Below, piece after piece: positions 17,547-58,182 of a stretch of DNA of 64,000 bases (position 1 is its first letter; each line of letters begins with the position of its first letter). Under the pieces are notes generated by a model that worked only from the letters and a program-made list of their open reading frames with translations, was not told the origin of the DNA and did not search any database. A program made the position numbers and the translations under genes. The stretch is from an uncultured Opitutales bacterium (GTDB taxonomy: Bacteria > Verrucomicrobiota > Verrucomicrobiia > Opitutales > JABDGR01): contig CAZLPS010000001.1 in the NCBI GenBank assembly GCA_964561455.1, positions 48,977 through 112,976 on the forward strand, given 5' to 3'.

Positions 17547-17557
17547 CCTGGATTTTT

Positions 17558-19030: not shown

Positions 19031-19040
19031 TCCATCCGTC

Positions 19041-20003: not shown

Positions 20004-20014
20004 TTGGATTTCTT

Positions 20015-21103: not shown

Positions 21104-21121
21104 TTTCTGTTTCCCTCGATC

Positions 21122-22165: not shown

Positions 22166-22175
22166 ATAATTGAAA

Positions 22176-23228: not shown

Positions 23229-23274
23229 TTTTGCGCGTCTTTGCCTGCCGGCATTCTTTCCTAATCCCACCGCC

Positions 23275-37137: not shown

Positions 37138-38391
37138 ATGAACTACGACATTTGCGTCCTCGGTCTCGGATACATCGGCCTGCCGACGGCCTCCATCTTC
37201 GCCACCAACGGGAAAAAAGTCCTCGGCGTGGATGTCGTGTCGGCGGTGGTCGAAACCATCAACGCCGGAAGAATTCACATCGAGGAGCCCGATCTCGACG
37301 TGCTCGTGTGCACTGCAGTGCAAAGCGGCAATTTGCGCGCCGGCTCCCGGCCCGAGCCGGCGGCGACCTATATTATTGCTGTGCCCACGCCCTTTCACCA
37401 GGACAGTGCCCGCCTCAAGTCCCCTGATTTGTCTTTTGTCGAACAGGCCACCCGTTCGCTGGCCCCGGTGGTTCCGTTTGGAGCCTTGGTGATCCTGGAG
37501 TCCACCAGCCCAGTCGGTACCACCGCGAAGGTCCGCGATTGGCTGGCCGCAGAACTCTGCCGGGTTCGCCCCGACGAAGCCTCCGCGTTGGAAAACTCAT
37601 TGCGTTTTGCGCATTGCCCGGAACGGATTTTGCCCGGCAAGATGTTGAAGGAATTGGTGGCGAATGACCGCATTGCCGGCGGGCTCACCCCCGACGCCGC
37701 CCAGGCGGCAAAGTCCCTCTACCAGGCGTTTTGCACCGGCGAGATTTTTCTGACCGACGCCCGTACCGCCGAAATGGCGAAGCTCACCGAGAATTCCTTT
37801 CGCGACGTCAACATTGCCTTTGCCAATGAACTTTCCCTGATTTGCGAACAACTCAAAATTGACGTATGGGAATTGATTCGACTGGCCAACCGGCACCCGC
37901 GCGTAAAAATACTTCAACCCGGTCCGGGCGTCGGCGGCCATTGTATTGCGGTGGACCCGTGGTTCATTGTTGACGCGGCGCCGGGGTTGGCTCGGCTGAT
38001 CCGGACCGCGCGCGAGGTCAACGACAGCAAGCCCGAGTATGTCATCGCTTCGATCATGCAGGCGGCGGCAAAATTCCCCCGGCCCGTCATTGCCTGTTTG
38101 GGTTTGGCGTTTAAGGCGGACGTGGATGACCTGCGCGAAAGCCCGGCGGTGGATATTGTCGGGCAACTGGCTTTGGAAGGGGTGGGAGAGGTTTTGGCGG
38201 TGGAACCACACATTAAAGCCCTGCCAGTCGCGTTGGCGGAGCAGGGCAAAGTAACGTTGACGGATGCCACCACCGCCTTGGCCCGCGCGAATGTGGTGGT
38301 TTTGCTCGTGAGCCACCGGGCGTTTGATGACATTGACCGGCGGAAGCTGGAAGGAAAAACAGTCATCGATACCCGCGGCTTTTGGCGATGA
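37138..38391 (+). CDS. wecC: UDP-N-acetyl-D-mannosamine dehydrogenase
   Basis: GLGYIGLPTA, VPTP, HCPERILPG, ENSFRDVNIAFANE, GGHCIAVDPWF, DDLRESPA. Confidence 0.93.
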   Translation: MNYDICVLGLGYIGLPTASIFATNGKKVLGVDVVSAVVETINAGRIHIEEPDLDVLVCTAVQSGNLRAGSRPEPAATYIIAVPTPFHQDSARLKSPDLSFVEQATRSLAPVVPFGALVILESTSPVGTTAKVRDWLAAELCRVRPDEASALENSLRFAHCPERILPGKMLKELVANDRIAGGLTPDAAQAAKSLYQAFCTGEIFLTDARTAEMAKLTENSFRDVNIAFANELSLICEQLKIDVWELIRLANRHPRVKILQPGPGVGGHCIAVDPWFIVDAAPGLARLIRTAREVNDSKPEYVIASIMQAAAKFPRPVIACLGLAFKADVDDLRESPAVDIVGQLALEGVGEVLAVEPHIKALPVALAEQGKVTLTDATTALARANVVVLLVSHRAFDDIDRRKLEGKTVIDTRGFWR

Positions 38392-40322
38392 ATGTGTTCC
38401 GTAAATCGTGGTTGATTTTTAAATTTCTCGGGCCCGGCTGGGTGGCCTTCCGCGTGGGGTATGCCTTGCGCCGCCGCCTCGGCGCGTTGCGCCGGAATTC
38501 GCCCTGCCAACCGTGGAGCATGATTCCGGCAGTAGCCCGGCTGCCGGATTGGCTCCGCACCCCGGCCTGGCCAGCCCGGGGAAAAGAGTGGGGGAGTCGG
38601 TGTATTGCTGAAGCGGATGGATTGTCCCTGGGCGAATTTGTGCTTTTTTCCCTTCATGCCCGCCATCTGGGACTTCCGCCGGACTGGCACCGCAACCCTT
38701 TTTCCGGCCAATCGGCGCCCCGTGGTCGCCATTGGTCGGCGTTGGGTGACTTTGCGTTCGGTGATATCAAGACCATCTGGGAGCAGAGCCGGTTCGGTTG
38801 GGCCTTTACCCTCGTGCGCGCCCATGCGCGCACGGGTGAAGCCCGGTTCGCGGACCTATTTTGGCGGCTGTTTGAAGATTGGTGCGCCCAGAACCCGCCG
38901 AATGAAGGAGTGAATTGGAAATGCGGCCAAGAGGCTACCTTTCGCCTCATGGCCGTCACTTTTGCTTTATCGCATTTCGGCCGGTTGCCGTCGGCGACGG
39001 ATGAAAGATTGCAGCTTTGGGCGCGTTTCGTCACGGCCACGGGGCAGCGCATTGAGGCCAATTTAAGCTATGCTCTCAGCCAGTCCAATAACCATGGGAT
39101 TAGTGAATGCGTCGGTTTGGTCACCGCAAGTTTGCTCGCGGAAGATTCCGTTGCTGCCCGCCGGTGGCGTGAACTGGGTTCCCGAAAATTGGCGGAGCAA
39201 CTGCACGATTTGATTTATGCCGATGGCGGCTTTTCGCAACATTCTCTCATTTACCATCGGGTGGTATTGCACGATCTTTTGTGGCTGGTGGCGCTGTGGC
39301 ACCAGGCCGGTTTGCCCCCACTGGACTGGCTGGTGCAGAAAGCTCGGATGGCGTTGGTCTTTTTGACCCGGTTGGTGGATGCAAATACAGGACTGGGCCC
39401 TCTGTACGGCTCGAATGACGGGGCCAATGTGCTCCCACTCGACGACGGTGTTTTCCTCGATATGCGCGGGGTCCTGGCCGCCGGCCACGCTTTGCTCAAC
39501 GGTGCGCGAATTTATCCGTCCGGTCCGTGGGACGAGGCGGCCTTTTGGCTGACGGGACGAGATCCCCGGCTTTTGCCGTTGCAGACCAGCGATAACCTTT
39601 CCCCACGCTGGCACGGTTTGGAGTCCGGCGTCTTTCTTTGGTCTTCGCAGGAGACACGCTTATTTCTGCGTTGTCCCGTTTTCTTCCGCCATCGGCCGGA
39701 CCATGCTGACATGCTGCATGCGGACATTACCTGGCGCGGCCGGCCGGTGGCGCATGATACCGGTTCGTATGGCTACAATACCACGGGCGTCTTTGATGGC
39801 GCGTTGGAAAAAGCCGAAGCCCATAACTTGCTCATGATCGAGGGTCGCGAAACGCTCGAGAAGGCCGGTCGTTTTCTTTGTTTGCCTTGGCCCACCGGCA
39901 CGACGCAGTGGTCGGAGGCGGACCAAAGTTTTCGGGCCACCCATGACGGCTACCGCGCCGCCGCCCGGGTGGAACGGAGAGTATTTTCCCCTCGCGCCGG
40001 CGTATTCCGCCTCACCGACCGGGTGGAATTGCGCCACGCCGGCCGGGTCCGTTTGCACTGGCTCCTGGCGGATGCAGACTGGAAACTCGATACTGTGGCC
40101 CGGACGCTCACGGCCACGCTGGCCGGCGAAAGGTTCACCCTCTCGTGGGAGTCGGATTTGCCGGTTGGTGCAGCCACGCTGGTGCGCGCCGATCCCGCTT
40201 CGGCGCGCGGCTGGTGGTCCCGCCATTACTTGGCGGCCGATCCGGCTGTTTCCTTTGCCCTCGTGTTTGACGTGCCCAAAGCCTTGACGGTGTCCACCCA
40301 GTTTGCGCCCGGGGGCGCGTGA
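38388..40322 (+). CDS. Heparinase II/III family protein
   Basis: DIKTIWEQSRF, NW...QE...R, SNNHGISE, DGG..QHS..YHR, HADMLH, DTGSY.Y, HN. Confidence 0.82.
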   Translation: MNVFRKSWLIFKFLGPGWVAFRVGYALRRRLGALRRNSPCQPWSMIPAVARLPDWLRTPAWPARGKEWGSRCIAEADGLSLGEFVLFSLHARHLGLPPDWHRNPFSGQSAPRGRHWSALGDFAFGDIKTIWEQSRFGWAFTLVRAHARTGEARFADLFWRLFEDWCAQNPPNEGVNWKCGQEATFRLMAVTFALSHFGRLPSATDERLQLWARFVTATGQRIEANLSYALSQSNNHGISECVGLVTASLLAEDSVAARRWRELGSRKLAEQLHDLIYADGGFSQHSLIYHRVVLHDLLWLVALWHQAGLPPLDWLVQKARMALVFLTRLVDANTGLGPLYGSNDGANVLPLDDGVFLDMRGVLAAGHALLNGARIYPSGPWDEAAFWLTGRDPRLLPLQTSDNLSPRWHGLESGVFLWSSQETRLFLRCPVFFRHRPDHADMLHADITWRGRPVAHDTGSYGYNTTGVFDGALEKAEAHNLLMIEGRETLEKAGRFLCLPWPTGTTQWSEADQSFRATHDGYRAAARVERRVFSPRAGVFRLTDRVELRHAGRVRLHWLLADADWKLDTVARTLTATLAGERFTLSWESDLPVGAATLVRADPASARGWWSRHYLAADPAVSFALVFDVPKALTVSTQFAPGGA

Positions 40323-40325: not shown

Positions 40326-41579
40326 ATGCACGTTCTTTACTTCCACCAATACTTCAACACCCCCCGGGGGGGCAGTGGCATTCGCTCCTACGAGTTTGCG
40401 CGGGCGCTGCTCGCTCGCGGCCATCGCGTCACCATGGTTTGTGTCAACGAGGTGACTGACCCGCTCGATCTTCCAGGCCCCCGCTCCGGGCCGATGAGGC
40501 GAGGCGTCATTGACGGAATTGACGTAATCCAGTTCAATTTGAATTACTCCAACCACCAAAGCCTCCCCCAAAGGGCCGGGGTCTTTCTGCGGTTCGCGGC
40601 GCGCGGTATCGGCCTGGCCTTGACCCTCGATTACGATTTGATTTTTGCCACTAGCACCCCGCTGACCGCCGGAATTCCGGGAATTTTTGCGCGGGTGCTA
40701 CGCCGCAAGCCGTTTGTGTTTGAGGTCCGCGATTTGTGGCCCGAATTGCCCAAGGCCATGGGCGTGGTAAAAAATCCCCTGGTCCTGGTTGGTCTCAGTG
40801 CGTTGGAATGGTTGAGTTACCGGGCGGCGTCGGCATGCATCGGTTTGTCCGCTGGCATCGGCCGGGGCATCGCCGCCCGCGCCCGCAGAAATTTGCCCAT
40901 CGCGATCATCCCCAATGCCGCTGACTTAGATATTTTTAATCCCGGTCGGCGCGAGGACTTGCGCCTCGACGGCGTGGGGCCGCGGGATTTTGTGGCGGTC
41001 TTCACCGGTGCGCACGGTCAGGCCAACGGGTTGGACGCCGTGCTGGATGCGGCGGCCGAACTGCAGCGTCGGGGCCGGCGGGACATTGTATTTGCTTTTA
41101 TCGGCGAAGGCAAAATGAAGCCGAAACTGGTTGGCCGGGCGCAACGCGAGGGACTGAATAACTGCCGCTTTTTCGACCTGATGCCCAAAACCCGGTTGAA
41201 TAGTGTCATCAGTTGCGCTGATGCCGGATTGATGATTCTCGCAAATGTGCCGGCCTTTTATTATGGCACGTCGCCCAATAAATTTTTTGACTATATCGCC
41301 GCCGGCTTGCCGGTGATTAATAATTACCCTGGCTGGTTGGCTGAAATGATTCAGGAACATCGCTGCGGCCTTGCGGTGCCACCTGGCCAGGCCAGCGCCC
41401 TCGCCGACGCCCTTTGCTCATTGGCGGACCAGCCCGAATTGCGCCGGGAATTTGGGCGTAATGCCCGGCATCTCGCTGTCACCAAGTTTGCCCGCGCCGC
41501 CATGGCGAAAAAGTTTGTTGATTGGCTGGAGGCGGTCCGGCAAAACCGTGCCCCTGCCGGCTTGCAGCAGTTTGCCTAA
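40326..41579 (+). CDS. GT4 glycosyltransferase (WbuB-like)
   Basis: QYFNTP, TSTPL, EVRDLWPE, GAHGQANGL, SPNKFFDYIAAG. Confidence 0.9.
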   Translation: MHVLYFHQYFNTPRGGSGIRSYEFARALLARGHRVTMVCVNEVTDPLDLPGPRSGPMRRGVIDGIDVIQFNLNYSNHQSLPQRAGVFLRFAARGIGLALTLDYDLIFATSTPLTAGIPGIFARVLRRKPFVFEVRDLWPELPKAMGVVKNPLVLVGLSALEWLSYRAASACIGLSAGIGRGIAARARRNLPIAIIPNAADLDIFNPGRREDLRLDGVGPRDFVAVFTGAHGQANGLDAVLDAAAELQRRGRRDIVFAFIGEGKMKPKLVGRAQREGLNNCRFFDLMPKTRLNSVISCADAGLMILANVPAFYYGTSPNKFFDYIAAGLPVINNYPGWLAEMIQEHRCGLAVPPGQASALADALCSLADQPELRREFGRNARHLAVTKFARAAMAKKFVDWLEAVRQNRAPAGLQQFA

Positions 41580-41605
41580 GTTTCTTCAAAAACTTTTCAG
41601 TTTCC

Positions 41606-42469
41606 ATGAGCCAGCCGCCCGCACTCGTTTTGCCCGACACCGGCGAGGTTTGCCTCCTGACGCCGGAGGCCATGGCTGAATGGTGGCGTGCACAAGGCCG
41701 CAAGGTTTGCCAATTTCGCGGCCGCTTATGGGAGGAGGTGCGCCCGGGCGGCTACTTTCAGCCCATTCATCCCCTCGCCCGCTTGCGCAAAGACGAAATT
41801 GCCCGCCCCCGTTGGTGGGCTTGGGGTTTTCGTGCCGCCGTCGCCGATACCGACCGTGATTTCGCCAATGCGACCCTGCCCACCCAGCTGCTGGCCAACT
41901 TGGCGGACTATGACCTCGGTCAATTGCCCCCGAGGCGCCGGACCTATTTGCGCGGCTGCCTCAAGGCGGTGCGCTTGGTGCGCCTTGACCGCACCCTTAT
42001 GGAAGAGCAGGGCTTCGCGGTGGCGTGTTCTTCCATCCGGCGCACCGGCTATCTCAAAGTGCCGTCACCCGCTGAATATCGGCAATCCCTGTCTGCGGAT
42101 TTTTTGCGGCCGGAAGTTGTGCTCCTCGGCGGACTGGTGGACGGCCGTCTGGGCGGCTATATTGTCGCCTATGCCATCGAGGGCACGGCTTATATTGAGC
42201 GCGTGCTGATTGCTTCGGAATTTCTCGATTACAACATTACCACGGGCGTGGTCTACCAATTCGCCCAAATGTGCCGCCGTCATGGCGGTATTCGCGAAAT
42301 GGTTTATGGATTGCACTCGCGGGAAGACGACAAGCTTTGCCAGTTTAAGGAGCACATGCGTTTTTCCGTTGTCCCGGTGCCGTCGCGGATCTACCTTAAT
42401 CCCCTGATGAGCCATTACGTCAAGTGGCGGCAACCCCATGTTCATTACCGGATGACTGGCCTGCCCTGA
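41606..42469 (+). CDS. Putative GNAT/FemAB-like acyltransferase
   Basis: RRRTYLR, LGGYIVAY...AYIE, YG......LCQFKE resemble the FemAB/Acetyltransf_6 fold. Confidence 0.55.
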   Translation: MSQPPALVLPDTGEVCLLTPEAMAEWWRAQGRKVCQFRGRLWEEVRPGGYFQPIHPLARLRKDEIARPRWWAWGFRAAVADTDRDFANATLPTQLLANLADYDLGQLPPRRRTYLRGCLKAVRLVRLDRTLMEEQGFAVACSSIRRTGYLKVPSPAEYRQSLSADFLRPEVVLLGGLVDGRLGGYIVAYAIEGTAYIERVLIASEFLDYNITTGVVYQFAQMCRRHGGIREMVYGLHSREDDKLCQFKEHMRFSVVPVPSRIYLNPLMSHYVKWRQPHVHYRMTGLP

Positions 42470-43185
42470 TCGCCCTCCGCCACTGCTCCGCTGGGTCCAT
42501 AAACTTTCCATTCACAGAGGGTTTGCGTTAGCCAGCTGCGGCGCCGCGGTCGGCCCGCCAGCGGGCGCAAAAACTGCAAATCGTCAAACAAATGTTGGCA
42601 TTTCGAACAATTGTAAAGCATCACATACCATTGGCGCGGATGGGCGGCTTGGCTCCGGCGCAGATTCTGCACGACGGGTGCCATGACCTTTTCGTTGAAG
42701 GGATTATAAAAAAACAGCACGCAGTTGCCGGTGGGTGGCTCAAATTCCATGGCGTCCGCAGCCAATACTTCCATCCGTGCCCCCGGTACGCGGGGTTGGA
42801 ATATTGCAATGTTTCGCCGGGCGATTTCGACCATGTCCGGCGCATAATCCAGCCCGGTAATTCGGCGAAATCCAGCCTGCGCCGCCAGCAGGAGCGTCCG
42901 GCCCTTGCCGCAACCGTAGTCCAGAAAGTGGAGCGAATCCAGTGGCGGCGGAACCTCCCGCAGCATCCGCCGAAATTCGCCCGTCGGCGTGGGCTGATAC
43001 TCAATTCCAAACGGCTTGTTGGCGCTGCTCGTGCGCAGGACGGCGTTGGCCACGAAGTTGCTGGTTTCGGTGCCGTAGCGCCAGTCAAAGGCGGCTTTGT
43101 CCGCCATGCGCAATACGGCGCTCCGGATGCGCATGAGGGTGGCGGAGGGCATGGATGAAAAACCGGTGGAGCCGGGCGTGCTCAT
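42445..43185 (-). CDS. Class I SAM-dependent methyltransferase
   Basis: FLDYGCGKGR, GLDYAP, LAADA, FFYNPF; start uncertain (43191, 43185 or 43152). Confidence 0.8.
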   Translation of the reverse strand: MSTPGSTGFSSMPSATLMRIRSAVLRMADKAAFDWRYGTETSNFVANAVLRTSSANKPFGIEYQPTPTGEFRRMLREVPPPLDSLHFLDYGCGKGRTLLLAAQAGFRRITGLDYAPDMVEIARRNIAIFQPRVPGARMEVLAADAMEFEPPTGNCVLFFYNPFNEKVMAPVVQNLRRSQAAHPRQWYVMLYNCSKCQHLFDDLQFLRPLAGRPRRRSWLTQTLCEWKVYGPSGAVAEGDQGRPVIR

Positions 43186-43219
43186 TGCCATCCCGGCCTG
43201 ACGATTCCTGATTTCAAAA

Positions 43220-43870
43220 ATGAGCTTATATCGCCATGGCGGCAAGCGAGCATTCGACCTTGTGCTGGTCCTGCTGATGGCGCCGGTTTGGCTGCCATTG
43301 CTGGCGGTCGTGGCGGTATTGGTCCGCGCCAAGCTCGGTTCTCCGGTGCTCTTTCGCCAACCCCGTCCTGGTCGCTATGCCACGACGTTTGCAATTATAA
43401 AATTTCGCTCCATGACGGAGGCCCGCGACACCTTGGGCAACCTTTTGCCGGACCCCGCCCGCCAGACCTCATTTGGCCGCTGGCTGCGGCGCACGTCGCT
43501 GGATGAATTACCCGAATTAATCAACGTGGTCCGCGGGGACATGAGCCTCGTGGGCCCCCGCCCCCTCCTCATTCGCTACTTGCCGCGCTATTCTCCGACC
43601 CAAGCCCGCCGCCACGACGTGCTGCCGGGCATTACCGGTCTGGCCCAAGTCAAAGGCCGCAACAACATCTCTTGGGAGGAAAAATTTCGCCTCGATGTCT
43701 GGTACGCGGAGAATTTGTCCTGGGGGCTTGATATTAAGATTTTGTTGCTGACTGTCGGAAAGGTGCTGGCGCACGAAGGTGTCGTTGAGCCTGCCACTGG
43801 CGTTCACCAGGAATTTCTGGGCAGCCCACCCCCCGTCGGCCCACCTGACCCCCAAAATTTGCCAAAATAG
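43220..43870 (+). CDS. Priming phosphoglycosyltransferase, PglC-like sugar transferase
   Basis: KRAFDL, FRQPRPG, KFRSM, RRTSLDELP, GDMSLVGPRP, PGITGLAQV.GRN. Confidence 0.92.
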   Translation: MSLYRHGGKRAFDLVLVLLMAPVWLPLLAVVAVLVRAKLGSPVLFRQPRPGRYATTFAIIKFRSMTEARDTLGNLLPDPARQTSFGRWLRRTSLDELPELINVVRGDMSLVGPRPLLIRYLPRYSPTQARRHDVLPGITGLAQVKGRNNISWEEKFRLDVWYAENLSWGLDIKILLLTVGKVLAHEGVVEPATGVHQEFLGSPPPVGPPDPQNLPK

Positions 43871-43940: not shown

Positions 43941-45056
43941 ATGTTTTTTGACGGAATCATCAGCGCCGATGATCCCCGGTGGACGGAAGTCCTCGGGCGC
44001 TTTCCCGCGTACGATTTCCACCACCTCCCGGCCTATGTTGCGCTTGAGGCCGAGCGCCGGGGAGCCAAGGCCGGTGCCTATGTCCTGCAATGCGACCAGG
44101 GATCTTTTCTGTTGCCCTTGCTCGAATCGCAAGTGCCGCTGACGTTGCAACCCGAGGGTATTTCCCCGGAAGATGCGCTCGCGCCCTACGGCTATGCGGG
44201 GCCTTTGATCGCCGCCGATGGCGACATGATGCAACGCGAGAAATTTGTCGCGCTGGTGCTGGCCCGGTTGGTGGAACATCTGCGCTGCCGGAATATTTGT
44301 TCCCTCCTGTTGCGCTTTCATCCGTTGTTGCCGATTCCACTCAAGCCTTTTCAAGCCCTCGGGCATCTGGTGTTTCACGGCGAGACGGTGGACGTGGATT
44401 TGCGCCAGACGCCCGCGCAACTCTGGTCCGACACTCGCCGTGATTTCCGCAACCCGATCAATCGCATGGAGCGCCAGGGTTTCCGGTTTGAGCTGGATTT
44501 TGCCGCGCAGCGCTTGGGCGACTTTGTGAAAATCTATCATGAAACCATGCTTCGCGTGCGGGCCGATCCCCAGTATTTCTTCTCCCAGGATTATTTCCGC
44601 GGCTTGAAGACCGCTTTGGGGCCCGGCTTCGTTCTGGCCCACGTCTTCAACCCGGCGGGTGAAATGGTTTCGAGTGGCATCTTCACCGTTTGTTCGGGCA
44701 TCGTGCAATACCACTTGTCGGGCAATTCATTTGGTGGCCAGGGTTCGGATGGTTCAAAATTGCTGCTGCACGGTGTCCGCCAGTGGGCGCGGGAACACGG
44801 CTCTACCCATTTTCATCTGGGTGGTGGAGTCGGGGCCCGCAACGATTCCCTGTTCTTGTTCAAAAGCGGGTTTTCCTCGGGCCGGGCGCAATTTCATACC
44901 TGGCGGCTGATTGTGGACGCCGCCGCCTATCAGCGCCTCTGCCAACGGTGGGAGTTGCTCAACCGCCAGCCCGCCGACGCTCCGGAAGGCTTTTTCCCAG
45001 CTTACCGGAAAATGCTTCCCGCACCGGCGGCGCTGGGCGAGCGCCAATGCGCTTGA
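43941..45056 (+). CDS. GNAT/FemAB-like acyltransferase
   Basis: PYGYAGP, RFHPL, YFFSQDYF, YHLSG, HLGGG, LFLFKSGF. Confidence 0.78.
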   Translation: MFFDGIISADDPRWTEVLGRFPAYDFHHLPAYVALEAERRGAKAGAYVLQCDQGSFLLPLLESQVPLTLQPEGISPEDALAPYGYAGPLIAADGDMMQREKFVALVLARLVEHLRCRNICSLLLRFHPLLPIPLKPFQALGHLVFHGETVDVDLRQTPAQLWSDTRRDFRNPINRMERQGFRFELDFAAQRLGDFVKIYHETMLRVRADPQYFFSQDYFRGLKTALGPGFVLAHVFNPAGEMVSSGIFTVCSGIVQYHLSGNSFGGQGSDGSKLLLHGVRQWAREHGSTHFHLGGGVGARNDSLFLFKSGFSSGRAQFHTWRLIVDAAAYQRLCQRWELLNRQPADAPEGFFPAYRKMLPAPAALGERQCA

Positions 45057-45123
45057 GACCAACTCTTTAGTTTGTTTATTCCTGACCACCCAGCAGGAAA
45101 ACACATTAAGATTCCATAAACGC

Positions 45124-45152
45124 TTGATTTCGAGTAACCGATTTGAGATTAT
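45124..45152 (+). promoter_or_regulatory. Possible internal promoter in an AT-rich gap before the acylation cassette
   Basis: TTGATT-17nt-GATTAT with TG at the extended -10 position. Confidence 0.35.
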
Positions 45153-45194
45153 GTTGGCCTTGTCGCGGCGTTTCCGCGGAAGAGCCGTTTCCCA

Positions 45195-45953
45195 ATGCTC
45201 GAGCCTTTATCCTCAAGTGATTCCCCGCGCCCACTAGTCATTGTAGGCGCTGGGGGCCATGGCCTCGAGGTCCTGTGGGTCGCCGCCCGGATGTCGCTCG
45301 ATCCCGTGTTCGGCAGTTGGAACGTCTTGGGCTTTGTCGACGACCGTCAGAGCTTGCGGGGTCGTTTGGTCGAGGGTCTGCCTGTACTTGGTTCGGTGCT
45401 TGAGTTCTTGGAATCGCACCGGGGCCGGCCAATTTATTTCCACTGCGCTGTCGGCAGCAATTTGCAGCGGCAACGCTTGGGGGATTTGTTTGAACGGGAG
45501 GGCTTTCAACCGGCCACCATCATGGACCCGTTGACCGTCGTCTCCCCGCGGGCTAAAATTGGGCCCGGGTGCTATGTCGCCCCGCGCTGTTATATTGGGC
45601 CCTATGCCGAATTGGGAAAGTATGTTCTCGTCAATGTCGGGTCCAGCGTTGGGCATCATGCCATCATGGGCGATTACTCCCAGGCTTGCCCCGGTGTGCG
45701 CGTCAACGGCCATTCCATTGTGGATAAACTGGTTTTTTTGGGCTCCAATTCCGTTGTCCATCCGGGTAAACGCGTCGGCGAGAATTCCACCGTGGCCGCG
45801 GGCTCCTTTGTGGTGCGGGACGTTCCTCCCAATACGCTCGTGGTGGGTGTGCCCGCCGTCGCGGTCCACCACACGCCGGTGTTTGAGGGCGAAGGCACCA
45901 ACCAGGAGGCCCTTCCCCGGCCGCCCACCCAGGCTATTCCACCGGTTGTATGA
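45195..45953 (+). CDS. NeuD/PglD-family sugar acyltransferase (left-handed beta-helix)
   Basis: IVGAGGHG, GFVDD, AVGSN...R, hexapeptide repeats, VGHH, VGVPA. Confidence 0.88.
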   Translation: MLEPLSSSDSPRPLVIVGAGGHGLEVLWVAARMSLDPVFGSWNVLGFVDDRQSLRGRLVEGLPVLGSVLEFLESHRGRPIYFHCAVGSNLQRQRLGDLFEREGFQPATIMDPLTVVSPRAKIGPGCYVAPRCYIGPYAELGKYVLVNVGSSVGHHAIMGDYSQACPGVRVNGHSIVDKLVFLGSNSVVHPGKRVGENSTVAAGSFVVRDVPPNTLVVGVPAVAVHHTPVFEGEGTNQEALPRPPTQAIPPVV

Positions 45954-46171
45954 TTTCCGACGAGTCAATTCGGCAGGCTGTGGCGCGGGAACTTAAGGTT
46001 CCGCCCAGTTTGTTGCTGCCCGAAACCGTCTTGCACTCCCTGCCGGGCTTTGATTCGGTGCAATTATTGATGCTCATGGTTGCCTTGGAGGAAATTGGCG
46101 TCAAAATCCCCACCACCGAGGCCGCCAATTTGCGCACGTTCGGGGAACTTCTCGTCTTCGAGCGCAAGTAG
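45950..46171 (+). CDS. Acyl carrier protein
   Basis: 73 aa; GFDSVQLL phosphopantetheine motif. Confidence 0.78.
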   Translation: MISDESIRQAVARELKVPPSLLLPETVLHSLPGFDSVQLLMLMVALEEIGVKIPTTEAANLRTFGELLVFERK

Positions 46172-46198
46172 ATTCTTTCCCGGCCCCGATTCCGGTCC

Positions 46199-47281
46199 AT
46201 GCTGCACGCCGCCCTCACTGCGATTCATCACGTCGTGCCCGCTCGCCGTTTGACGGCGGCCGAGTTGGAGGCGCGATTCGGGGCGAAGAGTGTTCAGTCC
46301 ATTACCTCGTTGTCTGGCATTCGTGAGCGCCGTATCGTTGAGCCAGGGATGACCGCTTCGGATTTGGCCTTTGCCGCGGCCGACCGGTTGCTCGAAGCCC
46401 GGGGCATCCCGCGGCCGTCGCTGGACGTGCTCGTGGTCACCACCCAAACAGGTGATTATCAGATTCCCGGCACGGCCTACGTGTTGCATGAACGCCTCGG
46501 ATTGTCCCCACATTGTGCCGCCTTTGACCTCGCCCAGGGTTGTTCGGCTTTTCCCTACTCGCTGGCTGTCGCCCAGGGATTGTTCGCGGCTGGTCTGGCC
46601 CGGCGCGCGCTCGTCCTCAACGCGGATGCAGTTTCCTCCATTCTTCATCCGCAGGACCGTACCCTGGTCACCCTGCACGGCGATGGCGCCACCGCAACCT
46701 TGTTGGAGACCGCCACCGCCAATGAAGGTTTGCTCGGTTTTCATTTGGGTACCGACAGTTCCGGCTGGCGGTACCTGTGCATGCCGGCTTCCGGTGCGCG
46801 CCAGCCGCGCGATGAATCCACCCGCCGGGAAATTACTGACGAATTCGGCAATGTTCGGACGGCGGAGCATTTCCAGATGAACGGGCAGGCCGTGTTTCAT
46901 TTTGCGATCCACAAGATTCCCGAGGTGGTCGGCGAAGCACTGGGCAAATTTGGCGTGTCGCTGGCGGATTTGGATCTGGTCATTCTCCACCAGGCCAACC
47001 GGTTTATGATTCAGCAGATATATAAAAAACTCGGTGTGCCGGCTGAAAAACAGTTCTTTTACCTCGAGGACGTCGGCAACCTCAGTGGCGCGGCCACTCC
47101 GGCGGCATTGTCGGAAGCCGTGCGCCAGGGCCGTGTCCGCCCCGGCGCCTTGATTTTACTGGTCAGTTTTGGCGTGGGCCTCTCCTGGGGCATTGCCCTT
47201 GTGCGCGTCGGCCCACATGGCTTGGTGCCCATTTCGGCCTCCACCGAATTGACGCTGGTGAATCCAAATTCCCAGTCATGA
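46199..47281 (+). CDS. 3-oxoacyl-ACP synthase III (FabH-like)
   Basis: SGIRERR, AQGCSAF (Cys), HQAN (His), GNLSGA (Asn), SFGVGLSWG. Confidence 0.9.
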   Translation: MLHAALTAIHHVVPARRLTAAELEARFGAKSVQSITSLSGIRERRIVEPGMTASDLAFAAADRLLEARGIPRPSLDVLVVTTQTGDYQIPGTAYVLHERLGLSPHCAAFDLAQGCSAFPYSLAVAQGLFAAGLARRALVLNADAVSSILHPQDRTLVTLHGDGATATLLETATANEGLLGFHLGTDSSGWRYLCMPASGARQPRDESTRREITDEFGNVRTAEHFQMNGQAVFHFAIHKIPEVVGEALGKFGVSLADLDLVILHQANRFMIQQIYKKLGVPAEKQFFYLEDVGNLSGAATPAALSEAVRQGRVRPGALILLVSFGVGLSWGIALVRVGPHGLVPISASTELTLVNPNSQS

Positions 47282-47508
47282 CCCGCGCCCAAAAGTTGGA
47301 CCGTCTGCAGGAAATTTTTCGCGACGTGCTCGACCAGCCCGCCTTGCATATTACCGAAAGTTTTTCGCCCGCGGACTGCCCGGAATGGGACTCCGTGGCG
47401 ACGGTGCAGATCGTCCTCGCGGCGGAGGCGGAGTTCGCCATGCGGGTGCCCACCGCCACAGTCGCCCACCTGCATTGTGTCCGGGAATTGCTCGATTTGG
47501 TGCCATGA
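47278..47508 (+). CDS. Acyl carrier protein (FkbH-associated type)
   Basis: 76 aa; EWDSVATVQIVLAAEAEF. Confidence 0.82.
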   Translation: MTRAQKLDRLQEIFRDVLDQPALHITESFSPADCPEWDSVATVQIVLAAEAEFAMRVPTATVAHLHCVRELLDLVP

Positions 47509-49340
47509 GTACTTCTGCCGGCCAACTTTTTTTTGCGGCTGCTTTGGCCCGCGCCCGCGCCCAACGCTCCGCTGGCGACCTGGCCGGCTCATTGCGCGAG
47601 TTGCAGTTTGGGCTCGACGCCCCGGCCGAATTCCCCTCTGCAACGTCAGCCGCGAAGTTTTTGGAAAAATCCGCTGCCGGTGGCATTCCTCCGGGGCTGC
47701 CCGTGCGTCGCGTGGCTTTGCTCGGAGCCGAAACCCTGGCCTTTATTCAACCTCTTGTTCGCGCCCTGGCCTTTCGCGACGGCTGGTGGCCGGTGTTTTA
47801 TGACGCCCCTTTCGGCGCCTGGCAGCAGGAAATTCTCGCACCGCATTCAGCGCTTCGCAAGTTCCAGCCAGCAGTCACGTTAATCTTGCGCGGTTGGCCC
47901 TCTCTTGGGCCGGGTGAAGTGGACGCCGGTCAATTGGCCGATGCAGAACTGGCGGTGGCCCGTCGGGCGGCAGAAGGCCTCGGTTTGGTTCTCTGGCCGG
48001 GATACGACTGCCCTTCGTTGGACCCTGCATTGTGCGCCGCCTTGGTGGAGGTCAACCGGCGGCTGCAGACCAGCTTGCCGCTGGAAATGCTCTGGGTGAA
48101 TCTGGCGGAATTGCAGGTTGCTTTTGGCGATGGTTGGGAGGATCGGCACTTGTGGGACGCTGCCCGCCAGCATCCCTCCGCCGCCGCCTGCATCGCGGTG
48201 GTGGAATTGTGGCTCTCCCTTTTGCGCGCCCGCTGGGGGCAGGTGCGCAAGGTTCTCGTCACGGACCTCGATAATGTTTTATGGGGCGGCATCGCGGGCG
48301 AGGACGGCATCGAGGAACTGCGCTTGGGTCCGGGTTCTCCCACCGGTGAAGCGCATGCGCAATTTCAACAGTATTTGCTCGAACTTAAGCACCAGGGCGT
48401 GTTGCTGGCGGTTTGCTCAAAGAATAATGACGCCGACGCCCGCGAAGTCTTTGCCCGCCGGACGATGCCGCTCAAACTCGGGGACTTTTCCGGTTGGATG
48501 GTCAATTGGCGCGATAAAGCGGATAATTTGCGCACCCTCGCCGCAAAAATGCGTCTCGGCCTCGACAGTTTTGTGTTTGTGGATGACCAGCCGGCCGAAC
48601 GCGCCCGCATCCGCCAGGCGCTGCCGGAAGTCGCCGTGCCCGAGATTCCGCCCGATCCCGCCGGCTATGTCGCTGTTTTACAGGCGCGCAGGTTTTTTCC
48701 GGCTGGCGCCGTATCCGCCGAAGACCGCGGCCGCACCGCTGCTTATCTGGCCGACGAAAAGCGGAACGAATCCTGCGCCAGCGCCGCCACCCTGGACGAT
48801 TTTTTGCGTGGATTGGAAATGGTGTGTGACCACGGCCCCATTTCGGATCTTGAGCTCGACCGGGCCGCACAATTGCTCGCCCGCACCAATCAGTGGAATC
48901 TGACCACCCGGCGCCATTCTCGCGCGGAAATGACCCGATTAATTTGCCAGCCGGGCGTGCTCACGCGCTGGTTTCGTTTGCGCGACCGGTTTGGGGACAA
49001 TGGCATTGTCGGACTGTGGATTTTAATGCCTGGCGCGGCTGGCGAATGGGAAATTGACAGTTGGGTCATCAGTTGCCGTGTCATCGGCCGTGGCTTGGAG
49101 GACTTAATGTTCAACGAACTGGTGGACCTTGCCCGCTCCGCCGGCGCCACCCGCTTGCGCGGTGTTTATATTCCCACGGCTAAGAACAAACTTGTTGCCG
49201 GTCTGCTTCCCGGGTTTGGTTTTTCGGCGGTGGGCGGTGAAATGGAATCTGGCAGCCGGGCTTATGCCATCGAGCTCGATCAAGCATCTCGGCGTACCCA
49301 CGTTATTCGTTTTCCAGCAGGGAATGGCGCGGTTCTTTAG
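47505..49340 (+). CDS. FkbH-like HAD-IIIC glyceryl-ACP loading enzyme
   Basis: DLDNVLWGG, CSKNN, NWRDK, FVDDQPAER, RTNQWNLTTRR, DRFGDNG, SCRVIGRG. Confidence 0.9.
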   Translation: MSTSAGQLFFAAALARARAQRSAGDLAGSLRELQFGLDAPAEFPSATSAAKFLEKSAAGGIPPGLPVRRVALLGAETLAFIQPLVRALAFRDGWWPVFYDAPFGAWQQEILAPHSALRKFQPAVTLILRGWPSLGPGEVDAGQLADAELAVARRAAEGLGLVLWPGYDCPSLDPALCAALVEVNRRLQTSLPLEMLWVNLAELQVAFGDGWEDRHLWDAARQHPSAAACIAVVELWLSLLRARWGQVRKVLVTDLDNVLWGGIAGEDGIEELRLGPGSPTGEAHAQFQQYLLELKHQGVLLAVCSKNNDADAREVFARRTMPLKLGDFSGWMVNWRDKADNLRTLAAKMRLGLDSFVFVDDQPAERARIRQALPEVAVPEIPPDPAGYVAVLQARRFFPAGAVSAEDRGRTAAYLADEKRNESCASAATLDDFLRGLEMVCDHGPISDLELDRAAQLLARTNQWNLTTRRHSRAEMTRLICQPGVLTRWFRLRDRFGDNGIVGLWILMPGAAGEWEIDSWVISCRVIGRGLEDLMFNELVDLARSAGATRLRGVYIPTAKNKLVAGLLPGFGFSAVGGEMESGSRAYAIELDQASRRTHVIRFPAGNGAVL

Positions 49341-49413: not shown

Positions 49414-50172
49414 TTATTGGATGGCCGCCAAAGCTCTTGCTTCCACCGGGGGCAGCTTGGCGTATAGGTCGAACGTGCGGCTGAATTGGTTCATGAATTT
49501 AATGAACCCGGGTTCGGACCACAATTGTTCAAAAGACTCGACGGATGAAAGGCGGATTACGAGTTGTTCCTTCCGCTGGTCCAGACCAAAGCGCTTGAAA
49601 TCCTCCACCAGTACTGGCAGCCGCTCAATGCGCCCGGCGAGTCCGTTTTCCCATCCAACCAGATCGTAGGACATCGGCACGCCCCCCACCAGATGCCAGA
49701 AGATTACGTGCACCGACTGGCCGTCCTTCTTGTACGTGCCAGTTTCCATCGGCTTGAGTGTGCCGCCGGCGAGGTTCTTTTCGACGTCCTGGCTCCGCTC
49801 GAATTGTTCCCAGCCATTGTGCACCCAGCAGGTGTCTGGTGAGTGCGAGCCAACTTTAGCCGGGCTGAATCTCCCCGGCAGCCAGTGCGCGACGTATACC
49901 TGCACCTGGGTTTGCCCGTTCGAGTAAATTCGGCAGACCGCATCGTCATAATGCAGGACTGATTCAACTTGGGCCTGCTCCTCCGGCGTGGAGGCGATGT
50001 CCTGATCCGTGGTGGCCCAGCCATCTGGCGGCAACGGCAGCAGCTGCGCCAGCGGCTGGTCAATCGCGGCCTTCGGCGCAGGCTTAAGCGCAATGTACAC
50101 GTTCAACCCCAGCAGTGCGACGACAATCACGCAGCCAAGACCCAACAAGGCACGCAGCCAGCGGGGGGACAT
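49414..50172 (-). CDS. EpsI-family (exosortase-associated) periplasmic protein
   Basis: N-terminal TM anchor; GW...D, YDD...R.Y, YVAHW, HSPDTCW..NGW, VIFWH. Confidence 0.75.
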   Translation of the reverse strand: MSPRWLRALLGLGCVIVVALLGLNVYIALKPAPKAAIDQPLAQLLPLPPDGWATTDQDIASTPEEQAQVESVLHYDDAVCRIYSNGQTQVQVYVAHWLPGRFSPAKVGSHSPDTCWVHNGWEQFERSQDVEKNLAGGTLKPMETGTYKKDGQSVHVIFWHLVGGVPMSYDLVGWENGLAGRIERLPVLVEDFKRFGLDQRKEQLVIRLSSVESFEQLWSEPGFIKFMNQFSRTFDLYAKLPPVEARALAAIQ

Positions 50173-50398: not shown

Positions 50399-51529
50399 AT
50401 GCCACCACGCATTTACCTTTCACCGCCCGACATCGGCTCCGACGAGCAGGCCCTGGTGGCCGAGGCCTTTGCCTCGAATTGGATCGCTCCGCTCGGCCCG
50501 CAGGTGGATGCTTTTGAAAGGGAGTTTGCCCATTGTGTCGGCGCCGAGCATGCCGTCGCGCTCAGTTCCGGCACGGCCGCCCTCCATTTGGCGCTGCGCC
50601 TGCTTGGCATCGGCCCAGGTGATGAAGTCTTGTGCTCGACGCTGACCTTTGTCGCGTCAGCCAATCCGATTGTCTATGAACGCGGCACGCCCGTGTTCCT
50701 CGATTGCGAGCGCGAATCCTGGAACCTCGACCCAAACATTTTGGCGGACGCGTTGCGCGCCCGTTCCGGGAGGTTGCCCAAAGCCCTCGTGCTGGCGCAC
50801 CTTTACGGCCAAAGTGCCAATCTCGACCCCATTGTAAATTTATGTGCTGAGCACGGCGTGGCATTGGTTGAAGACGCCGCCGAGGCCCTCGGTGCGACCT
50901 ACCATGGCCGGCCGGTTGGCACGCGGGGTTTTGCCGGAGTATTTTCTTTCAACGGTAACAAAATCATCACCACCTCTGGCGGCGGCATGCTGGTGACGGG
51001 CGACGGCGATTTGGCCCGGCGAGTGCGCTTCCTTGCCACTCAGGCCCGCGACTCCGCGCCGCATTACGAGCACTCGCAGCTCGGTTTCAATTACCGTTTG
51101 AGCAACGTGCTCGCGGCCATTGGCCGCGGCCAGTTGCGCCACCTCGCGGAAAAAATTGACCGCCGCCGCGCCAATTTTGATTTCTACCTTAAAACGCTGG
51201 GCGATTTGCCCGGCGTCCAATTCATGCCCGAGGCCACTTGGGGCCGGGCCAATCGCTGGCTGACCTGCCTGACCATTGACCCCGTCGTTGCCGGTACCGA
51301 CCGCGAATCTGTCCGGCTGGCGTTGGAAAGGGAGAATATCGAAGCCCGCCCAGTCTGGAAACCCCTGCATTTGCAGCCCCTTTATTCCCGGTCGCCGCGG
51401 TTTGGCGGCGCGGTGGCGGAGGATTTGTTTGCTAACGGTCTCTGCCTGCCGTCTGGTTCAAATTTGTCGGAGGGGGAACGCGCCCGGGTGGCGTCCGTGG
51501 TGCGGACCCGCTTTCCCGAAGCTCATTAA
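50399..51529 (+). CDS. DegT/DnrJ/EryC1/StrS aminotransferase (PglE-like)
   Basis: SNWIAPLGP, SSGTAALHL, EDAAEALG, SFNGNKIITTSGGG, GFNYRLSN. Confidence 0.92.
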   Translation: MPPRIYLSPPDIGSDEQALVAEAFASNWIAPLGPQVDAFEREFAHCVGAEHAVALSSGTAALHLALRLLGIGPGDEVLCSTLTFVASANPIVYERGTPVFLDCERESWNLDPNILADALRARSGRLPKALVLAHLYGQSANLDPIVNLCAEHGVALVEDAAEALGATYHGRPVGTRGFAGVFSFNGNKIITTSGGGMLVTGDGDLARRVRFLATQARDSAPHYEHSQLGFNYRLSNVLAAIGRGQLRHLAEKIDRRRANFDFYLKTLGDLPGVQFMPEATWGRANRWLTCLTIDPVVAGTDRESVRLALERENIEARPVWKPLHLQPLYSRSPRFGGAVAEDLFANGLCLPSGSNLSEGERARVASVVRTRFPEAH

Positions 51530-55992: not shown

Positions 55993-55999
55993 TTTGCGA

Positions 56000-57913
56000 A
56001 TGTTCAAATTCATCCGCATCGCCATTTTTGCCATGCTGGCTGCAGCCTCCGCTCACTTGGCGGGCGCGGATCTGCCGCCGCCACCCAACCAGGTGGTCCT
56101 GCAACTGAAATGGAAGCACCAGTTCCAATTCGCCGGCTATTATGCGGCCATCGCCCAGGGCTTTTACAAGGACGCCGGCCTCGACGTGGTTTTGCATGAG
56201 GCCGAGCCCGGCCAGGATGCCGTGCGCGAGGTCTTGAGCGGACGCGCCAATTTTGGCGTGGGCACCTCGGATCTCCTCCTCAAGCGTCAACATGGCGACC
56301 CGGTGGTCGTCCTGGCGGCGATTTTCCAGCATTCGCCGCTCGTGTTGCTCACGCGCGAAGGCAGCGGCATCAAGGACATCCAGGACGTGCTTAACCAGCC
56401 CATCATGATCGAGCCGGAATCCGCCGAGTTGTATGCTTATTTCAAATATGAAGGCGTGGACCCCGCCAAACTCAAGGTTGTGCCGCACACCTTTGACATC
56501 GCCGACCTGCTGTCGGGCAAAGTCGCCGCGATGTCCGCCTATTCCACGGATGAGCCTTACCGCCTGACGCAGGCCGGGGTCAAGCCGCTGGTGTTCACGC
56601 CGCGCGCCGGGGGTATTGATTTTTATGGCGACAACCTTTTCACCACGGAAGCGGAGCTGCGCGACCATCCTGACCGCGTGCGTGCTTTCCGCGAGGCCAG
56701 CCTTAAAGGCTGGCAATTTGCGATGGACCATCCGGAGCAAATCGTGGACCTCATCCTTAAGACTTATAACACTCAGGGCAAAACCCGCGAGCAACTGTTG
56801 TTTGAAGCCCGGCAGACTGCCGATTTGATGCATCCCGAATTAATTGAGGTTGGCCACATGAATCCCGGCCGGTGGCAGCGCATGGCTGAAACCTACGCCG
56901 AATTCAACATGCTGCCGCGCGATTTCCCCCTTGTCGGCTTCCTGTATGACCCCAATCCCACGCCCAATTTTGTTCCGTTGTATTGGACTCTCGCCATTGT
57001 TTCGGTCATGGCGCTGGTCGCCTGGGCTTGGATTTTGCCGCTGCACCGGCTAAATTCGCGCCTGCGCGAAAACCTCGCTCGCGAACATGCCCTGTCCGTG
57101 GAATTGGGCCATGCCAAGAACGCCGCTGAATCCTTGTTGGTGGAATTGCGCCAGGCCAAGGACGCCGCCGAGTCCGCCGACGACGCCAAGGGCCGCTATC
57201 TCGCCGTGATGTCCCACGAGGTGCGCACGCCCCTGAGCGGGCTCATCAGTCTCACTGAGCTTTTGCAGGAGGAAATGCCGGCGCCCGAACGCCAGCAGAC
57301 CCTCGCCATCATGCGCACCACCGGCGAGGAAATGCTCAAACTTATCAATGATATCCTGGAGTATTCCAAAATTGAATCCGGCCGCCTCGAACTCGATCAA
57401 CAGCAAATGGAAGTCTCGGCGCTGGTGGACGACCTCTGCCGTCTCTATTCGGCCTCGGCCAGGGAGAAATCCCTCGAATTCAAGGTCGAGGTGGCGCCCG
57501 GAACTCCCGCCGTCATTAACACCGACGTGCAGCGCGTGCGGCAAATTCTCAGCAATTTGCTGGTCAACGCGCTCAAATTTACGGAATCCGGCCAGGTCTC
57601 CCTTGCGCTAAGTGCCCGCCGCGAGCCCGCCGCCACCCTGCCCGGCGCCCCGCCGTTGTGGCGTTGGCACTTCGTGGTGCAGGACACCGGCTTGGGGATT
57701 TCTCCGGTGCAGGCTTCCGGGTTATTTAATCCTTATGCCCAAGCCCATCCCGGCATTGCCCGGCGATTTGGCGGCACTGGTTTGGGCTTGGCCATTTCCC
57801 GGCAGTTGGCGCGGCTCCTCGGTGGTGATCTGGTCCTGGCCGAAAGCGCACCCGGTCGCGGTGCAACTTTCGTCTTGGAAATCGTCGCTCAGGATGGCGC
57901 AATGCCCGCGTAA
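56000..57913 (+). CDS. Sensor histidine kinase with periplasmic NMT1/THI5-type binding domain
   Basis: LKWKHQFQFAGYYAA, DFYGD.LFT, one TM, MSHEVRTPL, NALKFT, DTGLG, GGTGLGL; no receiver domain. Confidence 0.88.
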   Translation: MFKFIRIAIFAMLAAASAHLAGADLPPPPNQVVLQLKWKHQFQFAGYYAAIAQGFYKDAGLDVVLHEAEPGQDAVREVLSGRANFGVGTSDLLLKRQHGDPVVVLAAIFQHSPLVLLTREGSGIKDIQDVLNQPIMIEPESAELYAYFKYEGVDPAKLKVVPHTFDIADLLSGKVAAMSAYSTDEPYRLTQAGVKPLVFTPRAGGIDFYGDNLFTTEAELRDHPDRVRAFREASLKGWQFAMDHPEQIVDLILKTYNTQGKTREQLLFEARQTADLMHPELIEVGHMNPGRWQRMAETYAEFNMLPRDFPLVGFLYDPNPTPNFVPLYWTLAIVSVMALVAWAWILPLHRLNSRLRENLAREHALSVELGHAKNAAESLLVELRQAKDAAESADDAKGRYLAVMSHEVRTPLSGLISLTELLQEEMPAPERQQTLAIMRTTGEEMLKLINDILEYSKIESGRLELDQQQMEVSALVDDLCRLYSASAREKSLEFKVEVAPGTPAVINTDVQRVRQILSNLLVNALKFTESGQVSLALSARREPAATLPGAPPLWRWHFVVQDTGLGISPVQASGLFNPYAQAHPGIARRFGGTGLGLAISRQLARLLGGDLVLAESAPGRGATFVLEIVAQDGAMPA

Positions 57914-58047: not shown

Positions 58048-58182
58048 CTTGGTTAAGGGCTGCCCTAAGGTAATCACCCCAATCCATTTACATTCCCTTC
58101 CCTTGTCGCTTCCGCTTGAACACCCGTTTGATTTTCAATATTGAATCTAATGGATTTCGGGCCTCGCCATTCTACCTGCCGC

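Follow-up and report, generated by a model that had tools for sequence, protein, structure and literature searches.

We have analysed a cassette of five co-directional genes (positions 45195-49340, plus strand) carried on a 64,000-nucleotide stretch of DNA, hereafter the window, from an uncultured Opitutales soil bacterium. Profile searches with the open reading frames (ORFs) of the window read the cassette as an acyltransferase, a first acyl carrier protein (ACP1), a KAS III (β-ketoacyl-ACP synthase III), a second carrier protein (ACP2) and an FkbH-domain protein, preceded by an AT-richer intergenic gap:

45057..45194, no strand: intergenic gap 5′ of the cassette, 138 nt, AT-richer
45195..45953, plus strand: acyltransferase of 252 aa, NeuD/PglB/VioB (PglD) family, left-handed beta-helix
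45950..46171, plus strand: ACP1, 73 aa, PP-binding domain at 32.8 bits, motif GFDSV
46199..47281, plus strand: KAS III (FabH-like), 360 aa, ACP_syn_III and ACP_syn_III_C domains, NF006829
47278..47508, plus strand: ACP2, 76 aa, PP-binding domain at 22.1 bits, motif EWDSV
47505..49340, plus strand: FkbH-domain protein, 611 aa, TIGR01686

The initial annotation of this DNA had described five tightly coupled genes with three ATGA overlaps, and both the content and the coordinates proved correct. Read directly in the sequence, the overlaps lie at 45950, 47278 and 47505, with ACP2 joined in this way at both of its ends and a spacing of 27 nt between ACP1 and KAS III. The mechanical ORF for the FkbH protein opens at 47385, the ATG at 47505 yielding an ATGA overlap with the ACP2 stop and a 611-aa product, and the public gene calls for the source contig give an identical set of 252, 73, 360, 76 and 611 aa. 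The ratio of nonsynonymous to synonymous substitution rates (dN/dS), computed against three relatives, ranges from 0.06 to 0.26 across all five genes, values that indicate constraint and not precise rates since dS is near saturation; this argues that the genes are real and maintained, and by these comparisons all five are under purifying selection. The upstream gap is AT-rich, as first described (45.7% GC in 45057-45194 vs 60.9% in the cassette); the possible promoter placed there found no support in a scan for the sigma-70 consensus, although in this phylum one may still be present. The cassette contains no reductase, dehydratase or thioesterase, again in agreement with the earlier description, and searching the whole 64-kb window by tblastn with proteins from the sister loci described below returned no homologue of their ketoreductase or VOC protein.

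The FkbH protein scores 278.5 bits against TIGR01686 (cut-off 146.65) and 55.8 bits against the HAD-IIIC model (cut-off 35.75), and its closest homologues bear names from Opitutales, Verrucomicrobiota. The claim of complete FkbH motifs is borne out by an alignment of 14 homologues with identities down to 36%, in which the HAD motifs (D254-x-D256, S305, K338 and D360-D361) and the S523-C524-R525 motif are invariant or nearly so. No full-length FkbH structure was present in the PDB copy searched, in which the N-terminal part of B. fragilis BF1531 (PDB 3slr) was matched at 1e-47. Foldseek comparison of an AlphaFold2 model (mean predicted local distance difference test score 87.6) matched 3slr over residues ~60-400 and GNAT folds over residues ~430-600, and the model places Cys524 in a confidently modelled GNAT-fold domain, just ahead of an RxxGxG-like stretch. 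Its predicted architecture comprises three domains: one at the N terminus, a HAD-IIIC phosphatase domain and, at the C terminus, a GNAT-fold domain containing Cys524. We propose from its family that the protein is a glyceryl-ACP synthase, in which Cys524 would by analogy be the putative acyl-carrying residue.

The condensing enzyme passes the general KAS III model NF006829 (274.6 bits vs 249; 73.1 bits for ACP_syn_III and 102.7 bits for ACP_syn_III_C) and fails the housekeeping FabH model TIGR00747 (224.1 bits vs 292.1), scores by which it is a KAS III and not the housekeeping one. The “PKS-like” label that it was first given is a loose one: the enzyme is a KAS III in the style of type II fatty acid synthases (FAS), and the window contains no polyketide synthase (PKS). 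The Cys-His-Asn triad reported for it is present as Cys115, His264 and Asn294, aligned with Cys112, His244 and Asn274 of E. coli FabH, and all three residues are kept in 14/14 cassette KAS IIIs. The coenzyme A (CoA)-primer contacts Trp32 and Arg36 of E. coli FabH are replaced by Ser and Leu in the window enzyme, and Trp32, which stacks on the CoA adenine, is missing from each of the 14. The enzyme also carries a 16-17-aa insertion that is found in its best solved relative, PDB 3gwa, and it is predicted to be the condensing enzyme of an FkbH-coupled clade. The carrier proteins are indeed dissimilar and intact at the serine, with 31% identity over 62 aa and an Asp-Ser phosphopantetheine site in both (within GFDSV and EWDSV respectively). 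We propose that ACP1 is the malonyl and product carrier serving the acyltransferase, and predict that ACP2 is a dedicated carrier for FkbH loading.

The acyltransferase scores 175.5 bits against TIGR03570, above the cut-off of 160.8, with PglD_N and Hexapep domains at 43.2 and 46 bits. Its best solved relatives (VioB 7txp, WeeI 4m9c, PglB-ATD 4m98, PerB and PglD) are all N-acetyltransferases of 4-amino-4,6-dideoxy sugars, and the proposed activity is that of an acyl-ACP:UDP-4-amino-sugar N-acyltransferase, where the acyl-ACP donor is suggested solely by the translational coupling of ACP1. The likely acceptor, judging by the neighbouring genes, is the 4-amino group of a UDP-4-amino-4,6-dideoxy-N-acetylhexosamine (HexNAc) produced by PglF- and PglE-like enzymes.

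Taken as a whole, the cassette is best explained as a module that depends on carrier proteins for the N-acylation of a bacillosamine-type sugar, a reading to which we give a probability of roughly 0.5. The anatomy, synteny and relatives of the cassette point to what the initial annotation had suggested, a small assembly line that would decorate the glycan with a glyceryl or glycerate-extended acyl unit. Of the parts of this reading, the delivery by ACP of a glycerate-derived N-acyl group to a 4-amino sugar is probable, and we would put the C2 extension by KAS III specifically at somewhat under an even chance. In the sugar branch, family membership and synteny suggest that a PglF-like dehydratase and a PglE/LegC-like aminotransferase would convert UDP-N-acetylglucosamine (UDP-GlcNAc) to UDP-4-amino-4,6-dideoxy-HexNAc. 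In the acyl branch, FkbH would begin with an acyl precursor in phosphorylated form, most probably 1,3-bisphosphoglycerate, from which the HAD domain would remove the phosphate; by reference to the characterised FkbH family, the glycerate would be held on Cys524 of the GNAT-like domain and passed to holo-ACP2. KAS III would then be primed with the glyceryl group from ACP2 instead of an acyl-CoA, and would condense it with malonyl-ACP1 to give 4,5-dihydroxy-3-oxopentanoyl-ACP1, which is the least certain step of the scheme. The VioB/PglD-type acyltransferase would relieve ACP1 of its acyl group and attach it to the 4-amino group of the sugar. A PglC-like enzyme would then start the polymer by transferring the N-acylated sugar phosphate to undecaprenyl phosphate. 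That the decorated sugar is then the first on the lipid carrier is the simplest reading. We know of no description of a 4,5-dihydroxy-3-oxopentanoyl (polyhydroxy-keto C5) N-acyl substituent on a sugar.

The survey of cassette conservation that had been recommended shows the five genes again in some eight related Opitutales-like metagenome loci, and a seven-gene version in somewhat more distant sister loci. A metagenome scan with a single protein gave 10 loci. The five-gene relatives (L001/L002, L093, L094, L096, L098 and L099; numbers with L denote loci) are 62-80% identical in amino acid sequence and keep the PglC, FemAB-like, EpsI, PglE and PglF neighbours wherever the flank permits a check. 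In L095 (6640-10785) the order is shuffled to acyltransferase-ACP2-ACP1-KAS III-FkbH with all five genes retained, which indicates that it is the gene set that is conserved and not its order. Homologues of PglC, PglE and PglF accompany the cassette in every relative with enough flank (L001, L003, L093, L095, L008 and L016). The seven-gene cassettes, found in L003/L004, L005, L008 and L016 from Verrucomicrobiota and other metagenome genomes, share the families of the window and largely their order, with PglC, PglE and PglF neighbours in L003/L004, L008 and L016. They add an SDR ketoreductase, placed either between ACP1 and KAS III or right after KAS III, and a VOC protein adjoining ACP2 that resembles methylmalonyl-CoA epimerase (its best match, at 46 bits and under the model cut-off). 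Identities between L003 and the window are 58% for FkbH and 73% for KAS III. Both additional genes are missing from the window and from L001, L093-L096, L098 and L099, and the junctions at which they would have been placed consist of 27 nt and an overlap, so that the loss was clean. The sequence comparisons identify the window cassette as a reduced variant, without ketoreductase and VOC protein, of a conserved, putative FkbH/KAS III/two-ACP sugar N-acylation cassette. In the sister loci the ketoreductase would reduce the 3-oxo group and the VOC protein would act on the FkbH-loaded thioester; with both lost in the window lineage, the group would stay as a 3-oxo acyl or be reduced by the housekeeping FabG.

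The position of the VOC gene is informative as to its role. It accompanies FkbH-ACP in L012, L013, L045 and L055, where KAS III and ketoreductase are both missing, which suggests that it belongs to the FkbH half of the cassette and that its substrate is the thioester loaded by FkbH, on which it could plausibly serve as a C2 epimerase. In a planctomycete contig (L038) a protein with several tandem PKS-style ACP repeats (positions 4-1533) is encoded upstream of KAS III-ACP-FkbH-VOC, which may represent another form of the system, richer in carriers.

Whether KAS III extends the glyceryl group or merely passes it on is the question on which the predicted product turns. In a relay, FkbH would load ACP2 and KAS III would serve as a Cys-dependent transacylase that transfers glyceryl to ACP1 or to the acceptor, giving a plain N-glyceroyl (C3) amide. 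KAS III-like ACP-to-ACP acyltransferases exist, chlorothricin ChlB3 being an example, and a relay would fit with the lack of a ketoreductase, dehydratase or other beta-keto-processing gene in the window. However, each of the 14 cassette enzymes retains both residues of malonyl decarboxylation, His and Asn, the latter of which is usually lost in transferase-only relatives of KAS III. The sister cassettes, whose KAS III is 73% identical, include a ketoreductase that needs a beta-keto product and would be without substrate in a pure relay, which moreover has no obvious purpose when FkbH could load a single ACP directly. Wherever a KAS III cassette lies fully on its contig there are at least two carrier proteins, as against one each in the MBOAT- and FemAB-type cassettes that are free of KAS III. 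Two carriers are compatible with a relay, and together with the conserved decarboxylation residues, the loss of the CoA-primer contacts and the ketoreductases of the sister loci we take them to favour extension. On this balance we regard the relay as unlikely; the C. jejuni product discussed below counts in its favour.

A further alternative is that the operon combines two modules: the acyltransferase, ACP1 and KAS III would form a VioB/acp/VioS-like unit making an acetoacetyl amide, or a 3-hydroxybutanoyl amide if FabG supplied the ketoreductase, and FkbH with ACP2 would supply glycerate to another transferase, for example the FemAB/GNAT-like protein at 43941-45056, which would act at a second site. 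The gene for that protein is conserved immediately 5′ of the cassette, most loci pair FkbH-ACP with MBOAT, WcbI, FemAB-like or GNAT transferases and no KAS III, and the viosamine (vio) island works with acyltransferase, KAS III, ketoreductase and ACP alone. In P. syringae, vioB, vioS, vioR and acp lead to N-(3-hydroxybutanoyl)-viosamine, which is lost in vioB and vioR mutants (PMC3927599). That island (vioA, vioB, vioS, vioR, acp, vioM and vioT) resembles the window in joining a VioB-family acyltransferase to a KAS III and a private ACP for a 4-amino-4,6-dideoxy sugar, and differs in having no FkbH, a single ACP, a ketoreductase and an acetyl primer; a vio-type module would be incomplete in the window, where acyltransferase, KAS III, ACP and C4 aminotransferase are present and a ketoreductase is missing throughout. 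Two loci speak against separate modules. Both L010 and L019 encode a window-type KAS III (48-54% identity) beside (VOC)-ACP2-FkbH, and a second KAS III (35-39% identity) beside its own ACP and ketoreductase, like VioS/VioR, an arrangement that ties the window-type enzyme to the FkbH product and in which it would be redundant if it served a vio-like unit. Furthermore, the five genes remain together even in the rearranged L095. We consider two independent modules distinctly improbable.

A close parallel to the proposed N-acylation module lies in a well-studied pathogen. In C. jejuni NCTC 11168 the run cj1298-cj1304 encodes an N-acetyltransferase, acpP2, an S-adenosylmethionine (SAM) methyltransferase, an “epimerase”, an FkbH-domain HAD-IIIC protein, fabH2 and acpP3, so that the five families of the window occur in one run within a glycan locus, as matched by published annotations only. 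The C. jejuni run adds the methyltransferase (cj1300) and the “epimerase”, both absent from the window operon, and its acceptor is a nonulosonic acid on flagellin, whereas that of the window is probably the bacillosamine-type first sugar of a polysaccharide. Flagellin sugars of C. jejuni 11168 include 2,3-di-O-methylglyceroyl amides on pseudaminic acid (PMC3068675), and strains in which cj1302, encoding the FkbH domain, is a pseudogene, or which are without cj1301, lack the dimethylglyceroyl sugars, a correlative link (PMC7099621). These C3 amides, going with the same five families, are the single piece of chemical evidence to hand, and they count for the relay and against extension. The cassette is not unique, and the C. 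jejuni locus points to the product class; with the same families and a known glyceroyl-type sugar there, and relatives that carry a reductase and a VOC protein, the suggestion in the initial annotation that the product may be new was overstated.

Several considerations weigh against the module as we have drawn it. The likeness to C. jejuni is one of published annotations. The dimethylglyceroyl amide, the only product linked, and that loosely, to such a cassette, is a C3 acyl with no C2 extension, which argues against condensation in that organism. With no ketoreductase in the window, the reactive 4,5-dihydroxy-3-oxo thioester must survive or be reduced in trans, and one of the two acyl-ACPs might instead be used by the neighbouring FemAB-like transferase. 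The FkbH substrate, most likely 1,3-bisphosphoglycerate, is assumed by analogy. To our knowledge, the characterised members of the PglD/VioB family all use acyl-CoA (acetyl-CoA) and none an acyl-ACP, and we know of no biochemistry for any FkbH of a glycan locus. A literature search found no characterised FkbH in glycan synthesis, the sole relevant paper being the one on C. jejuni phage.

Two other systems make use of related enzymes in different settings. In tetronate biosynthesis, FabH-like enzymes act on the glyceryl-ACP that FkbH has made and on an acyl group bound to a second carrier (PMC7489565), and the FkbH-like protein, ACP and FabH-like enzyme of the tetronate “glycerate-utilisation operon” are shared with the window, which has led us to consider a free tetronate- or butenolide-like molecule, formed when the FabH-like enzyme joins glyceryl-ACP to a beta-ketoacyl-ACP, in place of a glycan substituent. 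The tetronate operon also contains the Agg4 acyltransferase and Agg5 dehydratase, and its partner is a beta-ketoacyl chain bound to a PKS or FAS that is released as a free tetronate ring. None of the Agg4-type, Agg5-type or PKS/FAS donor families appears among the annotated genes between 8.2 and 60 kb, and the window has no ORF longer than 666 aa. In contrast to Agg4, the acyltransferase of the window belongs to the sugar 4-amine N-acyltransferases, and the PglC/PglE/PglF synteny is strict across relatives; a diffusible product is very unlikely indeed. The FkbH/FkbJ step of the methoxymalonyl-ACP pathway (FK520, oxazolomycin OzmB) has the same HAD motifs, conserved Cys and dedicated ACP. This pathway was rejected as a model for the window, since FkbK/FkbI dehydrogenases are missing from the cassette and its borders, as are an FkbG O-methyltransferase and a PKS that would consume the product.

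On a broader scale, a scan of species-representative genomes gave more than 597 FkbH-domain matches from many phyla. The scan listed the best 80 of these >597 matches. Of the 85 loci fetched at that stage, 76 had a called FkbH gene and form the base of our neighbour census. The commonest neighbour is a private ACP (32 of the 76 loci in the largest cluster and 8 in the second), and tblastn finds an ACP2-like match adjoining FkbH in most loci. Other neighbour clusters comprise MBOAT proteins (17 loci), VOC proteins (15), ketoreductases (15), KAS III (10), polysaccharide deacetylases (9), MaoC-SDR fusions (8) and FemAB-like proteins (4 and 5 in two clusters). Further contexts are MBOAT-x-ACP-FkbH beside the rkpR capsule-export genes on S. 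meliloti pSymB (L086/L088) and FkbH-ACP-WcbI-SDR on a Niveispirillum plasmid; a plasmid search recovered FkbH relatives in the S. meliloti MBOAT, Niveispirillum WcbI and Erwinia fusion contexts, and no cassette of the KAS III type. With so many different outlets, FkbH-ACP gives the impression of a unit that supplies acyl groups for glycan acylation in general, of which the window is predicted to represent the KAS III and PglD-type outlet. The wider proposal, in which FkbH and a private ACP form a general, unrecognised glycerate-donor module with MBOAT, WcbI, FemAB/GNAT and KAS III/PglD outlets in many phyla and in which the window additionally makes a KAS III-extended 4,5-dihydroxy-3-oxopentanoyl amide on a bacillosamine-type sugar, is speculative and in its entirety somewhat unlikely.

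Outside the window clade, an adjacent MBOAT membrane O-acyltransferase is the commonest FkbH-ACP context, often with a partner of ~330 aa. This MBOAT-FkbH-ACP layout is Dlt/AlgI-like, and in it FkbH would replace the carrier-loading enzyme. In Acidobacteriota (L045, L046, L055 and L032) a block of GT2, AsnB-like, polysaccharide deacetylase, ACP, FkbH, VOC, FemAB-like and GNAT genes fits a KAS III-free route of deacetylation followed by reacylation.

Antigenicity, phage recognition and immune evasion are all shaped by unusual N-acyl groups that amino sugars carry. If the proposed module is real, it would be a compact system of five soluble proteins for diverting glycolytic 1,3-bisphosphoglycerate into glycan decoration, and the window cassette would allow one to ask whether KAS III can use a glyceryl primer. 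The answer would bear on the cj1298-cj1304 genes of C. jejuni and on the many FkbH-ACP pairs of polysaccharide loci, including the 17 of 76 with a Dlt-like MBOAT.

The genes that flank the cassette are as follows:

42445..43332, minus strand: SAM-dependent methyltransferase, Methyltransf_25/31/11 domains
43220..43870, plus strand: small PglC-type polyprenyl-phosphate phosphoglycosyl transferase, Bac_transf at 199.5 bits
43941..45056, plus strand: FemAB/GNAT (Acetyltransf_6)-like protein, Acetyltransf_6 at E=9e-5
49414..50172, minus strand: EpsI-like exosortase-associated protein, DUF3485/EpsI
50399..51529, plus strand: DegT/PglE/LegC-type sugar C4 aminotransferase, DegT_DnrJ_EryC1 at 332.7 bits
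51556..53496, plus strand: PglF/WbpM/CapD-type membrane-anchored UDP-GlcNAc 4,6-dehydratase, Polysacc_synt_2 at 378.6 bits with CoA_binding_3

The PglC-type gene adjoins the cassette in L003, L008, L014, L016, L093 and L095. The aminotransferase, predicted from its family to make the amine acceptor, scores 370.9 bits against the LegC family model, under the cut-off of 420, and is followed on its 3′ side by the PglF-type gene in L001, L003 and L093. The ORF of the FemAB-like protein opens at a GTG at 43779, and the ATG at 43941 gives a product of 371 aa, as in the relatives; its gene lies directly 5′ of the acyltransferase in L001, L003, L016, L093 and L095, and FemAB-like genes also come after FkbH-ACP-VOC in loci without FabH. 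We regard it as a candidate second acyl- or aminoacyl-transferase. The methyltransferase, the true start of which is probably internal because its ORF runs over the start of the PglC gene, may be a tailoring enzyme, with uncertain membership in the system: methyltransferases also adjoin related cassettes in L003, L008 and L054, and comparison of the window enzyme with that of L003 found no homology. The EpsI-like gene separates FkbH from the aminotransferase and is read from the opposite strand; its position, kept in L001, L003 and L092-L095, suggests a link of the glycan locus to a PEP-CTERM/exosortase system.

By its gene content the window is a large surface-polysaccharide locus, in keeping with the glycan setting first described, and the cassette has the PglC-, PglE- and PglF-like neighbours listed above. 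The locus encodes three Wzy-like proteins, several UDP-sugar dehydrogenases, ManC, a NeuB-like protein and a cytidylyltransferase, as well as five glycosyltransferases, a MurJ/Wzx-like flippase, WecB, WecC and a heparinase II/III-like protein. We considered whether the acylated sugar might be channelled into legionaminic acid through the NeuB-like protein and cytidylyltransferase 22 kb upstream and judged this less likely, because the only 2-epimerase is of the non-hydrolysing WecB type (439 bits) and because a PglC-type transferase travels with the cassette in its relatives.

A second sugar pathway is encoded at 13725-24765, with a KpsF-like SIS/CBS isomerase, ManC and an SDR epimerase/dehydratase. 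One of its genes (22170-23228) combines a PseF-like cytidylyltransferase with a capsule-type HAD phosphatase, and another (22945-24765) encodes a NeuB-family synthase that has a cupin at its C terminus and reaches only 152 bits, where the NeuB cut-off is 400. There is no hydrolysing 2-epimerase in the window, a lack that may indicate a Kdn-like acid or some other non-standard nonulosonic or ulosonic acid. The three Wzy_C/O-antigen-ligase-like membrane proteins are encoded separately (14701-16290, 17477-19030 and 33463-34803). The heparinase II/III-like gene (38382-40322) stands inside a biosynthetic operon between WecC and a GT4 gene, and the WecB-WecC-heparinase-GT4 run is present in L001 too. 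Between the GT4 gene and the methyltransferase lies a 315-aa ORF (41522-42469) with no Pfam or NCBIfam match. Beyond the PglF-type gene, the window encodes two adjacent paralogous sensor histidine kinases (55994-57913 and 58141-60048) with NMT1/THI5-like periplasmic domains.

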